Shown: piece after piece, positions 21,287 through 62,617 of the stretch
How positions within the stretch are numbered: position 1 is the first letter of the stretch
Layout of the letters: the number at the start of each line of letters is the position of its first letter
Notes under the pieces: model-generated
What the model was told of the DNA's origin: nothing
The model's input: only the letters and a program-made list of their open reading frames with translations
The model's database searches: none
Translations under genes and position numbers: made by a program
DNA from: Patescibacteria group bacterium
GTDB taxonomy: Bacteria; Patescibacteriota; Patescibacteriia; Buchananbacterales; UBA6539
Reading direction: 5' to 3'
NCBI GenBank assembly: GCA_041662625.1
Contig: JBAZSB010000001.1
Coordinates: 471,093 to 535,092, forward strand
DNA: 64,000 nucleotides

Positions 21287-21415
21287 CGGGCTGTAGCGCA
21301 GCTGCCCCGATGTCCGCCTTTGGCGGAATCGGGATCCCGACATTGCCAAAGGCAATCGTCGGGAGCTAGCGCGCATCGTTGGGCCTGCCCGCGTTGCTTT
21401 CACTGCGGGGTTAAA
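21287..21415 (+). other. tRNA-like 5' half. It has an acceptor strand CGGGCTG, a D-arm GCGC/GCGC with a ~58-nt structured insertion in the D-loop, and an anticodon-stem-like CATCG followed by TTGGGCC.
   Basis: It is closely similar to the 5' half of the adjacent tRNA-Pro (TAGCGCAGCTGG...CTAGCGCGCATCGTT) but has no matching 3' half nearby. Confidence 0.35.
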
Positions 21416-21441
21416 ATTAGAAATCTAAAACCGTTCTGAGT

Positions 21442-21515
21442 CGGGGTATAGCGCAGCTGGCTAGCGCGCATCGTTCGGGACGATGAGGTCGCCGGTTCGA
21501 ATCCGGCTACCCCGA
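21442..21515 (+). tRNA. tRNA-Pro (anticodon CGG), 74 nt, no encoded CCA
   Basis: Hand-folded cloverleaf: acceptor CGGGGTA/TACCCCG, D-stem GCGC/GCGC, anticodon stem CATCG/CGATG, loop TTCGGGA, T-arm GCCGG-TTCGAAT-CCGGC, discriminator A. It is flanked by an 11-bp extension of the acceptor stem (CCGTTCTGAGT / ACTCAGAACGG) plus a T-run. Confidence 0.85.
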
Positions 21516-21554
21516 CTCAGAACGGTTTTTCTAAAAAAGCAATGCGAAAGCAGG

Positions 21555-23787: not shown

Positions 23788-25548
23788 TTATTTCAAGTTT
23801 TTAATCAGCTCGACCACTTCTTCCGGGAAAAACTGGGCGCCATTATATTTATTTAGTCTTTGGTCAACTTTGATCCCAGCCACTTCCTGCAAAATGTTGG
23901 CGAGCTGGCCATCATAATTATTTTCAATACAAACTAACTTCTTTACGCCTTTCAAAGCCTTCTGCAGTTTTTCTACACCAAGCGGCCACGGTGCGACCAA
24001 GTGCAAATAATTGACATCAGCCAAAACTTTCAACGCTTCCAAAACCGGACCTTTAACCGAACCCCAGCCGATCAAAGTCAGTTTGGCTGATTTGGGACCA
24101 AATAATTCCGGGGCCGGCAAATCTTTTAAAACACCGCCAAGCTTGGCCGAACGCTTTTCCACCATTTGATTACGAATCTGCGGGGTAAAGCCTTCAATCG
24201 TAAAACCAAGCTCATCATGCTCGTCACTGTTGGCCAAGTAAACTCCGCCTTTTTGGCCGGGAATTGAACGGGGTGAAACCCCGGACTTAGTGACTAAATA
24301 GCGTTTAAATTCAGCCATCTTATTCAGTTGCTCATCAGTTAATAACTGCCCGCGGTCAATTTCAACCTTGGCTAAATCCGGTGGCAGAATTGATTGGTGA
24401 CCTTCGGAAATATATTTATCCAGCAGAATAAAAACGGGAATCTGCCATTTTTCAGCAATATTAAAGGCTTGGGTAGTTAAATAAAAAGCTTCAATCGGAT
24501 CGCCCGGAGCCAGAATTACCCGGACGAACTCGCCATGGCCGGCATGAGCTAAATAGGCTAAATCACCTTGTTCTGTCCAGGTGGGCAGGCCGGTGGCCGG
24601 ACCGGGCCGTTGTGATTCAAAAATAACTACTGGTGTTTCCGTTATCCCGGCTAAAGCCAAAGCCTCAGTCATTAAAGCAAACCCGCCGCCGGAAGTGGCA
24701 GTTGCCGCTCTGACTCCGGCAAAGTTGGCACCAATTGCCATATGGATGGCCGAAATCTCGTCTTCGGGGTGTTTGACTACCATGCCGGTCTTTTGCTGCC
24801 AAGCCGCCAGGTTATGCAAAATTGATGAAGCTGGTGTCATCGGATAAGAGGCAAAAAATTTACAATCCGCTGCAACCGCACCCAGACAGGCCGTGTCATT
24901 GGAAGTAACAATAATGGAATCTTTATTTTTGCCTACTGCCTTAAGTTTATAAGGAAATTTCTCCGCTTCCAAATTAGCTTTGGCGTAATCATAGCCAAAT
25001 TTGGCCGCCGTAATATTCATGGCTACTACTTCCTCACCCTTACCGGCAAAAGCATCTTTAATTACTTCATTTAAAATTTCTAAGTTAAAATCCAGTAAAG
25101 CCGCACTGGCGCCGGTAATAATGATATTAGCCGCAATTGGCTTAATTTGGGCTTGGCTGGCTAATTTTTCCAAAGGCAACGGGTAAACCTTGACGCCTTT
25201 GGTTTCCCCGGGCTTAATTTCAAATTTATCGCTATCATATAAAATCACGCCATCAGACATCATATCGGGCAGACAATAATCAAAGGCCTCACGGTTTAAG
25301 GCAATTAAGAGCTGGGTTTTTTGGTAAATCGCCATTACCGGCTCCTGACCAACGCTAACCCGATAGGTTACTAAACCGCCGCGGATCCGGGAAGGATATT
25401 CTGAGCTGTCAAAAGTAAAAAGGCCGCCGCGAACACAGGCCTTAGTAAAAATCAGGCCAGCTATTTGCTGTCCCCCGCCGGCAATACCGCCGATTTTCCA
25501 GGTAAAAATATTGTTGTTACTATCTTTCATGCTTTTATATTTTAGCAC
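23788..25548 (-). CDS. 2-oxoacid:ferredoxin oxidoreductase alpha subunit with fused N-terminal gamma domain
   Basis: 586 aa. The gamma-like N-terminal domain (KIGGIAGGGQQIAGLIFTKA) is followed by an alpha-subunit pyrimidine-binding domain. Confidence 0.8.
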   Translation of the reverse strand: MLKYKSMKDSNNNIFTWKIGGIAGGGQQIAGLIFTKACVRGGLFTFDSSEYPSRIRGGLVTYRVSVGQEPVMAIYQKTQLLIALNREAFDYCLPDMMSDGVILYDSDKFEIKPGETKGVKVYPLPLEKLASQAQIKPIAANIIITGASAALLDFNLEILNEVIKDAFAGKGEEVVAMNITAAKFGYDYAKANLEAEKFPYKLKAVGKNKDSIIVTSNDTACLGAVAADCKFFASYPMTPASSILHNLAAWQQKTGMVVKHPEDEISAIHMAIGANFAGVRAATATSGGGFALMTEALALAGITETPVVIFESQRPGPATGLPTWTEQGDLAYLAHAGHGEFVRVILAPGDPIEAFYLTTQAFNIAEKWQIPVFILLDKYISEGHQSILPPDLAKVEIDRGQLLTDEQLNKMAEFKRYLVTKSGVSPRSIPGQKGGVYLANSDEHDELGFTIEGFTPQIRNQMVEKRSAKLGGVLKDLPAPELFGPKSAKLTLIGWGSVKGPVLEALKVLADVNYLHLVAPWPLGVEKLQKALKGVKKLVCIENNYDGQLANILQEVAGIKVDQRLNKYNGAQFFPEEVVELIKNLK

Positions 25549-28550: not shown

Positions 28551-29036
28551 CTAGCCGCCCCGCCGCTTGGCCGCCTTCTCCTGCATCGTTTTGATCTGAC
28601 CTTCAAGTAAGGCCAAAGGAACATTGGTGTCGGCGGCTAACTTCTCCGCCAAAATCTTGCGGCGCCGAGCCTCCCAAATCACTGCTCCCTGGAGCAAATC
28701 AAAGGGTGGCTTGCCTTCGTCCGCCCGTTCTTGATTGATAGGGGCCAAAACAATTATAGCTTCGATCATATCAGCGGCGCTAAACGCAAAGTCATAGCCT
28801 TGCGCTAAAAGACCCTGCATGACCAACAGCAGCCGGTCATGAAACCGGCCAGGAACAATGGCGGTACCCAGGACCTGCTCGGCCAATTTGACTCTTAGGG
28901 GGTCAACCCCAAGGTATAACCGCCAATAGTCAGCCGCGCTAAGACCGGCCTTCCTTCTTTTCGTTTCTTCAGTTGATGCAGCGGGTTGAGCGGCGCCCGG
29001 CACACCTTTATCTCTTCGAGACCAAGGCCAATTCAT
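28551..29036 (-). CDS. GC-rich (~58%) hypothetical protein
   Basis: 161 aa. Strong SD GGAGGAAAG 7 nt upstream. The composition is foreign to its surroundings. Confidence 0.45.
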   Translation of the reverse strand: MNWPWSRRDKGVPGAAQPAASTEETKRRKAGLSAADYWRLYLGVDPLRVKLAEQVLGTAIVPGRFHDRLLLVMQGLLAQGYDFAFSAADMIEAIIVLAPINQERADEGKPPFDLLQGAVIWEARRRKILAEKLAADTNVPLALLEGQIKTMQEKAAKRRGG

Positions 29037-29148
29037 CGGCTTTCCTCCACTGGTTACAAACTCCCTCCGTTAGTAAAGTATCTTAGCAGAAACTGAATTA
29101 CTTTTCAATATCGATAATCACCAAAGATGTTATGTGGGACGGGGGTTT

Positions 29149-57498: not shown

Positions 57499-57735
57499 TT
57501 ACTTAATCAGCATCAACAAATTCTCCTCATCAAATTCGGAAATTTCACCTTTCTCTCTTAACTCCCCAACTACTTTTTTTATCTCTTCTGCACTCACTCC
57601 CCCATCAATTAGCTCTTTAACTAACGCACCATAGACATTCGGCTGTTCCCGATAATCTAAGCTTTTGATTTGATATAAAGCATCTTTAATCTGCTGTCTG
57701 TTTTTGAAAACTTTTTTGGCAGAAAATAAAGCCAT
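57499..57735 (-). CDS. Small hypothetical protein between secY and adk
   Basis: 78-aa ORF. The usual infA/rpmJ genes are not present in this position. Confidence 0.35.
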   Translation of the reverse strand: MALFSAKKVFKNRQQIKDALYQIKSLDYREQPNVYGALVKELIDGGVSAEEIKKVVGELREKGEISEFDEENLLMLIK

Positions 57736-57769: not shown

Positions 57770-59047
57770 TTATAGGCCTTCGTAATCCCGCATTGTTAGC
57801 TGGGATTCGATCTGTTTATAGGTTTCAATCACTACAGACACAACAATCAGCAAACTGGTACCACCAATAGTCAGACTGGCCATTCCAGTGAAACCCTGTA
57901 AAATCAAAGGTAAAACAGCAATAATACCTAAAAATAAAGCCCCCGCTAAAATGATTCGATTAGTTGTATTAGTCAGGTATTCTTCCGTATGCTTACCCGG
58001 CCTAATCCCGGGAATAAAACCACCTTGTTTTTGAAGATTTTCCGAAATCTGATCAGGCTTGAATACCACTTCTGTGTAGAAATAGGTAAAACCAAAAACC
58101 AAAACAAAATATAAAATACCGTAAAAAAGCTGGTTTTGAAAAAGGGCAATCGTCTTTTCGGCAATACTGACTAGAATTGCGGTTTTTGCGCTCAAGAAAA
58201 ATTGAGCAATCATAGGTGGGAACAAAATAATGGAAATGGCAAAAATAATCGGGATGACTCCGGCCATATTAACTCGCAATGGCAAGTGAGTGTTGACACC
58301 GCCATACATTTTCATTCCCCTGACCCGCTTAGCATAGGAAACCGGGACATTACGTTGACCCTCAGTGATTATTACCACCCCAACAATAGTTAAAAGCGCA
58401 ATCCCGGCAAACAAAAATAAAGTTATAATTTGTGATTTATCAAAAACTAAAAAAGTCTGCTGGATAGCACTCGGCAGCTGGGCCACAATGCCGGCGAAAA
58501 TAAATAAAGAAATACCATTACCAATATGTTTTTCAGAAATTAGTTCACCAAGCCACATCAAAAAAACAGTTCCAGCCGTAGCCGTCACTAAAATCATTAC
58601 TAACCGCCAAGGGGTTAAATCAGTAAAAATTTCTACGCTTGACTGTCGCAACAAAGCAATCAGACCATAAGCCTGCATCATCCCTAAAGGAACAGTCAAG
58701 ATTCGTGTCCATTGGTTAATTTTATGCCGACCGGCTTCACCATCTTTGGAAATTTCTTCCAGGCGCGGAACAATCATTACTAAAAGTTGAAAGATAATTG
58801 AAGCGGTAATGTAAGGGGCAACACCCATGGCGACAATGGAAAAACTTTCCATTCCCCCGCCGGACAAAATATTCATGATGCCCAAAAGTTGATTAGCGGC
58901 AAAAAAATCTTTGATTGCTGCTGTATTAATACCAGGTATCGGAATATGAGCGGCAATTCGAAAAATAACCAGCATTGCGGCAACAAACAAAATGCTGTCT
59001 CTTAAATCTTTAATTTTCCAAATTTGAATCAATTTTTTCCACCACAT
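57770..59047 (-). CDS. secY: Preprotein translocase subunit SecY
   Basis: 425 aa, 10 TM. Position after rplO in the spc operon. Confidence 0.9.
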   Translation of the reverse strand: MWWKKLIQIWKIKDLRDSILFVAAMLVIFRIAAHIPIPGINTAAIKDFFAANQLLGIMNILSGGGMESFSIVAMGVAPYITASIIFQLLVMIVPRLEEISKDGEAGRHKINQWTRILTVPLGMMQAYGLIALLRQSSVEIFTDLTPWRLVMILVTATAGTVFLMWLGELISEKHIGNGISLFIFAGIVAQLPSAIQQTFLVFDKSQIITLFLFAGIALLTIVGVVIITEGQRNVPVSYAKRVRGMKMYGGVNTHLPLRVNMAGVIPIIFAISIILFPPMIAQFFLSAKTAILVSIAEKTIALFQNQLFYGILYFVLVFGFTYFYTEVVFKPDQISENLQKQGGFIPGIRPGKHTEEYLTNTTNRIILAGALFLGIIAVLPLILQGFTGMASLTIGGTSLLIVVSVVIETYKQIESQLTMRDYEGL

Positions 59048-59108: not shown

Positions 59109-59573
59109 TTATTTCTTATCTTGGCTTGCCAGCTGGACTTGGCCGCCTGCTTCTATTATAGCTTTTTTTGCTGATTCTGAGAAACTGTCAGCACTAACGG
59201 TAAATTTCTTGGTTAATTTGCCATCGCCTAAAATTTTCACGCCAGTTTTTGCCGTTTTAATTAAATTTTTAGCAATTAATTTTTTAGCGTTAATTAGTTC
59301 TCCTGCTTCAAAACTACTTTCCAGTTGATCTAAATTGACTATTACCATTTTTGGCTTTAAACTCCTAAAACCGCCAATTTTCGGTTTATTTCTTAGACGT
59401 TGCTTTTAACCTCGGCGCTTTAAACCACCTTTACCGCCCGAACGGGATTTTTGGCCTTTCAAGCCGCGCGTACTATAAGTTCCATGGCCAGAAGCATTCC
59501 CGCGACCAACTCGCTTGGATTTTTTTCTGGCTTTTTTATTAACTTTTAAATTGTGTAAAGTTAGTTCAGACAT
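59109..59573 (-). CDS. rplO: Ribosomal protein L15 containing an in-frame TAA at codon 55 (+ strand 59406-59408). The track ORF 59109..59348 is only the C-terminal part.
   Basis: Manual translation from the ATG at 59573 gives [80 protein letters not shown].... It aligns with bacterial L15 across the stop (E. coli ..[30 protein letters not shown]..). Confidence 0.6.
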
Positions 59574-59577
59574 AGAT

Positions 59578-60144
59578 TTAACTAGCAGCTTTCTTAGTTT
59601 CTACTTGAGCCGCCTTATCGGCATTTTTATCACCCGTTTCCACTTTCGGCTCAACCTTTTTTAACATCTGCAAGGCTTTAATGGTTGCTTTAACATTATT
59701 AATTTTATTATTAGTACCCAAAATTTTTGCCACAACGTTAGAAACTCCGGCCAAATCTAAAACCATTCGAACTGCCCCGCCGGCAATAATCCCAGTACCT
59801 TTAGGAGCCGGCTTAATAAGAATTCTGGCGGCACCAAATTTAACATCAACCCGATGAGGGATAGTTTCATTGATAATCGGAATGCTAACTAAGTTTTTTC
59901 TTGCTTTAGTCACGGCTTTATTAACCGCCAAAGTTACATCCGCCCCTTTAGCCACGGCTGAACCAACCTTGCCCTTCCGATCCCCAATTACAACACAAGC
60001 ACGAAATCGCATCCGTTTACCGCCGGCCATCACCCGAGTGACTCGAGCGATATCAATGATTACCTGATCAAATTCTCTGTCAGCACCCTTATCCGCCCCT
60101 TGGTTTCTCGGACCTCTATTAGATTTTTTATTACCAGTTGTCAT
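59578..60144 (-). CDS. rpsE: Ribosomal protein S5
   Basis: IDIARVTRVMAGGKRMRFRACVVIGD, GTGIIAGGAVR. Confidence 0.9.
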   Translation of the reverse strand: MTTGNKKSNRGPRNQGADKGADREFDQVIIDIARVTRVMAGGKRMRFRACVVIGDRKGKVGSAVAKGADVTLAVNKAVTKARKNLVSIPIINETIPHRVDVKFGAARILIKPAPKGTGIIAGGAVRMVLDLAGVSNVVAKILGTNNKINNVKATIKALQMLKKVEPKVETGDKNADKAAQVETKKAAS

Positions 60145-62304: not shown

Positions 62305-62308
62305 ACTT

Positions 62309-62617
62309 TTAGATTATTTCTTTACATTTTTTACAAATTCGAACTTTTTTCTGATTGACCAAAATCTTATAACCAGGATGAGTGACCTTATTACAACGAG
62401 AGCAAACTAAGGCGATATTACTAATTGCCAAAGGGGCGGGAAACTGGATGCGTTGGCCTTTTTCACCTTGCTTTTTTGGCCGCATATTTTTAAATAGTAA
62501 ATTAACTCCCTCAACTGAAACTTTGTTGCGTTTATTAAAAATCTGTAAAACTTTACCCGTTTTACCTTCATCCTTACCCGTTAAAACTTTTACTTTGTCA
62601 CCTTTTTTTACCTTCAT
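62309..62617 (-). CDS. rplX: Ribosomal protein L24 (KOW domain)
   Basis: MKVKKGDKVKVLTGKDEGKTGKVLQI. Confidence 0.85.
   Translation of the reverse strand: MKVKKGDKVKVLTGKDEGKTGKVLQIFNKRNKVSVEGVNLLFKNMRPKKQGEKGQRIQFPAPLAISNIALVCSRCNKVTHPGYKILVNQKKVRICKKCKEII

Follow-up and report, generated by a model that had tools for sequence, protein, structure and literature searches.

Coding sequence that continues in frame and remains conserved beyond a stop codon is the configuration of programmed read-through and of stop codon reassignment. The latter has precedent in the candidate phyla radiation (CPR), given that some Patescibacteria use a reassigned stop: UGA encodes Gly in Gracilibacteria and Absconditabacteria (code 25). 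Consensus errors in metagenome-assembled genomes (MAGs), for their part, give rise to spurious pseudogenes.

For the ribosomal protein uL15 (L15, encoded by rplO), genuine loss alleles have also been described. M. smegmatis is viable with rplO frameshift nulls, which recur when selection by antibiotics is low-level and which compromise assembly of the 70S ribosome (Gomez et al., 2017; PMC5319836). This is the relevant evidence on L15 dispensability; PMC6467006 merely cites a paper on yeast L15. L15 is also described as dispensable in E. coli and B. subtilis in the work of Shoji (2011) and Akanuma (2012), as cited in PMC5319836. The M. smegmatis alleles are the closest real-biology analogue of the locus considered here, with an early truncation of L15 (at aa 26–28 of 147 in M. 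smegmatis, and at aa 55 of 154 here) in an otherwise intact ribosomal operon. However, the mycobacterial alleles are frameshifts that emerged in the laboratory under antibiotic selection and were verified by allelic exchange (Gomez et al., 2017; PMC5319836), whereas the present, putative allele combines a nonsense and a missense change in one uncultured MAG.

The stretch of DNA that was analysed (64,000 nucleotides; hereafter, the window) contains an rplO gene with an in-frame TAA at codon 56. The gene is the ordinary rplO of a Buchananbacteria-like CPR bacterium. The TAA is probably one half of a two-base local consensus error in a single deposited assembly, and most likely is not a biological signal; the interruption fits no class of recoding.

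The interrupted rplO gene

The rplO gene occupies positions 59109..59573 on the minus strand (154 codons plus stop), and was identified by translation, by profile matches to TIGR01071 and PF00828, and by synteny. Translation from 59573 to 59109 gives 55 sense codons, a TAA at 59408–59406, 98 further L15 codons, and a terminal TAA at 59111–59109. The first-pass annotation had reported the internal TAA at its exact coordinates but numbered it codon 55; 55 sense codons precede it, which makes it codon 56. It had also described a typical L15 N-terminus with conserved L15 sequence resuming in the same frame after the stop. With the stop entered as X, the translated product indeed matches the rplO equivalog profile TIGR01071 from end to end (108.9 bits, against a cut-off of 77.95; model positions 2–144 of 144). 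The match to PF00828 has an E-value of 8e-20, and residues 5–147 of the read-through product align with the uL15 chains of solved ribosomes. As the same annotation had noted, TAA is a normal stop elsewhere in the window: it terminates 46 of the 69 non-overlapping open reading frames (ORFs) that are 100 aa or longer, with rpsE and rplO among them (TAG, 19; TGA, 4).

The gene is part of an S10/spc ribosomal operon on the minus strand of the window, in the order L16, L29, S17, L14, L24, L5, S14, S8, L6, L18, S5, L15, SecY, a 78-aa ORF, Adk, and Map. Both neighbors of rplO are intact: upstream is rpsE (S5; 59578..60144, minus strand), the TAA of which ends 4 nt before the rplO ATG, and downstream is secY (57770..59047, minus strand; deposited as MFA6254918.1). 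This placement of rplO between rpsE and secY is the same on sibling contigs of the same species and on related contigs. Compared with bacterial uL15 in general, the window gene has a full-length match when read through, the expected spc position, and 99% identity to an intact 154-aa orthologue of the same species; it differs in having TAA at codon 56 and Arg in place of a conserved Leu at codon 59, both of which are private to this record. Four same-species contigs and 77 related genomes have the uninterrupted frame that the window rplO lacks.

The TAA divides the gene into an N-terminal fragment ORF of 55 aa (59406..59573, minus strand) and a C-terminal fragment ORF of 79 aa that starts from internal Met76 (59109..59348, minus strand) and carries PF00828. 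In the annotation of the MAG, the 55-aa piece is entered as a "hypothetical protein" (WC675_02675; MFA6254919.1), and NCBI lists no protein for the C-terminal piece; IMG labels both pieces as L15.

Several other features of this region were observed. No rpmD (L30) gene separates rpsE from rplO (window positions 59573–59578), where the S5 stop lies 4 nt from the L15 start; the absence of uL30 is usual in CPR/Patescibacteria. The 78-aa ORF between secY and adk (57499–57735, minus strand) has no Pfam match, and its stop abuts the adk start; it is kept at the same place, also with 78 aa, in a species that is only 85% identical (L005/L006). Gene starts in the window between 40000 and 64000, including those of all ribosomal protein genes, mostly have A/T-rich leaders without a Shine-Dalgarno-like motif, and a clear GGAGG at 7–9 nt was found at only 2 of 29 sampled real gene starts (54484 and 53697).

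Relatives and independent assemblies

A protein search with the window L15 returned 7,908 relatives, the best of which (P0001) is an intact protein of 154 aa with 99% identity; outside the two abnormal codons, the window L15 is identical to it. The alignment of orthologs that had been proposed as a check on the residue at the stop (drawn from Buchananbacteria, Parcubacteria, and other Patescibacteria) has Leu in the codon-56 column in 28/28 of the closest proteins, the local consensus of which is RRGLKQLLRNKPK. The sense codons that had been suggested for this position (GAA, CAA, or TAC) do not fit, in that every relative has TTA (Leu), a single T-to-A change from TAA. The second abnormal codon had been missed: it lies three codons downstream of the TAA (59397..59399, minus strand) and reads CGT (Arg), where close relatives have CTT. 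The codon-59 column is Leu in all close relatives and is hydrophobic (L, I, M, or F) in 59 of the 77 more distant genomes. The private bases, on the coding strand, are A at 59407 and G at 59398.

The intact L15 protein P0001 is encoded on four independently assembled contigs, from JGI, Logan, and ENA assemblies (ENA ERZ27249449, JGI 3300014208, Logan SRR18595301, and Logan SRR6484324). These sibling contigs align to the window without gaps at 99.70–99.97% identity, and all four have T at 59407 (TTA, vs TAA in the window) and T at 59398 (CTT, vs CGT in the window). In the rplO contig of SRR18595301, the two rplO bases are the sole mismatches to the window in 5,710 bp, and three contigs from this run (14,431 bp in total) are identical to the window save for these two bases. 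Across 14,580 positions that are covered by at least two samples, the two rplO bases are the only differences private to the window. When sibling contigs from other parts of the window were added, coverage rose to ~50.8 kb, with no indels relative to the window. A site alignment has T conserved at 59407 and 59398 also in two species with 85–90% DNA identity. JGI 3300014208 is the metagenome of GW1, a groundwater well affected by leachate at a landfill in Southern Ontario; this sample is very rich in Patescibacteria and was sequenced by 2 × 150 HiSeq (PMC9723747). The Logan contigs of the two runs (SRR18595301 and SRR6484324) both end exactly at 58291, inside secY, which suggests a shared assembly-graph branch point caused by strain variation or a repeat.

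Given that protein databases under-represent broken genes, DNA was also tested. From 80 GTDB genome loci that were fetched via SecY, 77 had an rplO match, and none of these 77 loci has an internal stop in rplO. Two cases that were flagged among them are natural C-terminal stops, and two partial rplO alignments (L042 and L059) reflect a cut at the end of the locus and plain divergence, not interruptions.

The TAA allele itself has one known location. Exact look-ups of the 55-aa and 79-aa fragments place both only on one contig of 922,082 bp (NCBI and IMG), which belongs to a MAG labelled "Patescibacteria group bacterium"; since the stop is present in the deposited record, it is not an artefact of the extraction of the window. 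All window proteins that were looked up also sit on a contig of 0.2–1 Mb, the intact L15 being the exception. A pattern that allowed any base at both positions found nothing in GTDB representative genomes, and in JGI metagenomes found just the intact JGI contig. Neither exact fragment look-ups nor pattern scans of genome and metagenome contigs recovered a second copy of the TAA allele from an independent sample or assembly.

Character of the two private substitutions

The two rplO changes (59407 T>A and 59398 T>G, coding strand) are 9 bp apart, and both are transversions at the second codon position, one of them nonsense and the other Leu59Arg. By our own arithmetic, the chance of two random differences in ~14.5 kb falling within 9 bp of each other is ~1e-3, and it is therefore best to regard the two changes as one event. 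Apart from this pair, 45 coding SNPs distinguish the window from its siblings: 27 are synonymous and 18 are mostly conservative replacements; none is nonsense, and only six are at codon position 2. Because it combines a nonsense and a radical change at position 2, where the other SNPs are mostly synonymous or conservative, the rplO pair is without the selection signature of real polymorphisms. Another pair with 9-bp spacing (8555/8564) consists of two synonymous third-position polymorphisms. The two rplO changes are private, adjacent, and apparently unselected, and the presence of the second substitution 9 bp from the TAA is the strongest clue for one local event as opposed to a selected feature.

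Two mutational routes to such a pair were considered and rejected. For ectopic gene conversion, a 12-mer and a 16-mer carrying the mutations have no second copy in the window, even at 1–2 mismatches. A quasi-palindrome template switch would perfect the local hairpin, whereas the double change makes it less stable (from -21.6 to -18.4 kcal/mol).

Origin of the interruption

On the reading that we favor, of a two-base consensus error, the changes most likely arose in sequencing, assembly, polishing, or curation, and not in the cell, as judged from sequence comparison. An artefact that is systematic, or that was introduced in polishing or curation, would have to be assumed, or else the choice of a minority haplotype by the assembler; the real rplO of the organism would then read ...RRGLKQLLRNKPK..., and encode an ordinary uL15 of 154 aa. 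The variant is limited to one assembly and is contradicted by independent assemblies of the same strain, and it is clustered without sign of selection. Further, uL15 is conserved universally, and the changes strike one of its most conserved stretches. With these traits, including blindness to coding effect, the interruption most resembles the spurious pseudogenes that arise from consensus errors in MAGs; it differs from them in that the surrounding assembly is unusually clean. The latter counts against an error: across ~50 kb aligned to sibling contigs of Illumina origin, the window shows no indels, and it has no further private changes. Also, the 922-kb length of the contig implies good coverage, and therefore random read errors should not reach the consensus. 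A generally error-prone assembly was rejected as a source, given the lack of indels in ~50 kb and the finding that other closely spaced differences are synonymous third-position polymorphisms.

The principal alternative is that a single multi-nucleotide mutation in rplO generated a very recent, strain-private null allele, which we consider possible but unlikely. Cells with this allele would make a 55-aa stub, with or without the 79-aa C-terminal piece, and have ribosomes that lack functional uL15, with the allele maintained by drift or by selection under stress; this scenario is equally doubtful. In its favor, the allele is found in the deposited consensus of a long, otherwise clean contig; the loss of L15 is tolerated in other bacteria, and so is not lethal in principle (PMC5319836); and the habitat, leachate-impacted landfill groundwater (PMC9723747), is plausibly stressful. 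Nevertheless, the allele occurs in one assembly only, with no recovery from independent samples or assemblies, and the otherwise identical strain of SRR18595301 has an intact gene. Two substitutions 9 bp apart would require a rare multi-nucleotide event, and the resulting allele would have to become the majority despite strong purifying selection on uL15 in every relative. There are also no further signs of decay in rplO, and the population has not otherwise diverged from the strain with the intact gene. Slightly less probable still is that a real multi-nucleotide mutation has risen to majority in one population of a Buchananbacteria-like CPR bacterium in landfill groundwater, which would then live without functional uL15. 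If true, loss of uL15 would come on top of the usual CPR lack of uL30, as a natural counterpart of the stress-selected rplO nulls of mycobacteria; and a wild CPR population that tolerates the loss of uL15 would be moderately interesting for the study of minimal ribosomes. Neither a consensus error nor a null allele is a new kind of explanation.

The first-pass annotation had listed sequencing or assembly error, a genuine nonsense mutation, and programmed read-through without choosing among them. The first two still stand, with error favored, but read-through is removed by the absence of the stop from the four same-species assemblies, the 28 close proteins, and the 77 genomes, and by the usage of TAA. 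All forms of recoding and of functional splitting, taken together, are very improbable.

For programmed read-through or suppression, an amino acid would be put in at the TAA via a suppressor tRNA or a stimulatory context, and full-length uL15 would be made. This agrees with the frame and the conserved L15 sequence running on directly after the stop, yet it is highly unlikely, in that the stop is present in no relative, even at 99.97% identity. The five tRNAs of the 64-kb window are ordinary (Pro-CGG, Trp-CCA, Thr-UGU, Tyr-GUA, and Thr-GGU), and no suppressor with a UUA anticodon is among them; one could lie in the remaining ~858 kb of the genome. Neither a special stop context nor a stimulatory downstream structure was found: the TAA-A context is common to 18 of the 46 ordinary TAA terminators, of which it is one of the two commonest contexts, and the downstream hairpin is the one weakened by the double change. 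Read-through would also leave Leu59Arg unexplained. A conserved recoding site is ruled out by the same 28 proteins, four sibling contigs, and 77 genome loci. The locus resembles known cases of read-through and reassignment (e.g., code 25) in that, within a Patescibacteria genome, conserved coding sequence resumes after an in-frame stop, but differs from them in that relatives do not share the stop, TAA serves as the main terminator, the window has no suppressor tRNA, and no other gene is affected.

A functional split gene, in which residues 1–55 and a piece re-initiated at Met76 would come together on the ribosome, is similarly far-fetched. In its favor, 13 nt separate an AGGAG from the downstream Met76 ATG, and the C-terminal piece contains the whole PF00828 domain. 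Against this, residues 56–75 would be lost, including the invariant P64, K65, G67, G68, and F69, and no relative is split. The AGGAG (within F-R-S codons) and Met76 are ordinary coding sequence in intact relatives. Moreover, among 29 sampled real gene starts, 26 have no Shine-Dalgarno-like motif, and the spacing at the two clear sites is 7–9 nt, not 13. Re-initiation at Met76 was rejected on these grounds, the AGGAG being shared with intact relatives as coding sequence in an organism that seldom uses Shine-Dalgarno sites.

An alternative genetic code, in which this lineage would read TAA as a sense codon, has negligible probability despite the reassigned stop of some other Patescibacteria, and is excluded by the stop usage of the window and the lack of any other interrupted gene: most long ORFs end in TAA, an in-frame TAA occurs in no other conserved gene of the 64 kb, and relatives use TTA (Leu) at the site. 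A scan of the window for same-frame open stretches parted by one stop found no other coding-strand gene interrupted in this way; what it otherwise picked up were neighboring genes that share a frame by chance, or non-coding frames.

Annotation and strain variation in the window

With a consensus error as the preferred reading, the biological consequence is small, and the practical point is one of annotation. In the deposited MAG, a ribosomal protein that is essential and conserved universally is broken up into a "hypothetical protein" and a remainder that carries no annotation. Ribosomal-protein phylogenies that use uL15 are affected, as are completeness scores, and marker sets would score the genome as being without uL15.

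Strain differences were also observed elsewhere in the window. The acceptor stem of tRNA-Pro(CGG) (21442–21516; region 21287–21530) is perfect, and a 14-nt inverted repeat (AAACCGTTCTGAGT ... ACTCAGAACGGTTT) flanks the tRNA. A partial, interrupted copy of the 5' part of this tRNA lies ~150 bp upstream of it. In one sibling contig (L016, from ERZ27249449), the 138 bp between the two tRNA-Pro copies are missing, leaving a chimeric tRNA with a C5-C68 mismatch; this difference reflects either an indel that distinguishes the strains, between short direct repeats, or a collapse of the L016 MEGAHIT contig.

Differences between strains cluster in short, dense patches. One comprises 21 SNPs in 208 bp (28888–29095), across the N-terminus and upstream region of a 161-aa ORF (28551–29036). 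Others are eight SNPs at 25340–25405, near the N-terminus of a 586-aa POR-like ORF; seven at 62307–62384, at the C-terminus of L24, which are common to two samples; and five at 2279–2333, in a 552-aa ORF. These patches suggest short recombination tracts or locally hypervariable segments.
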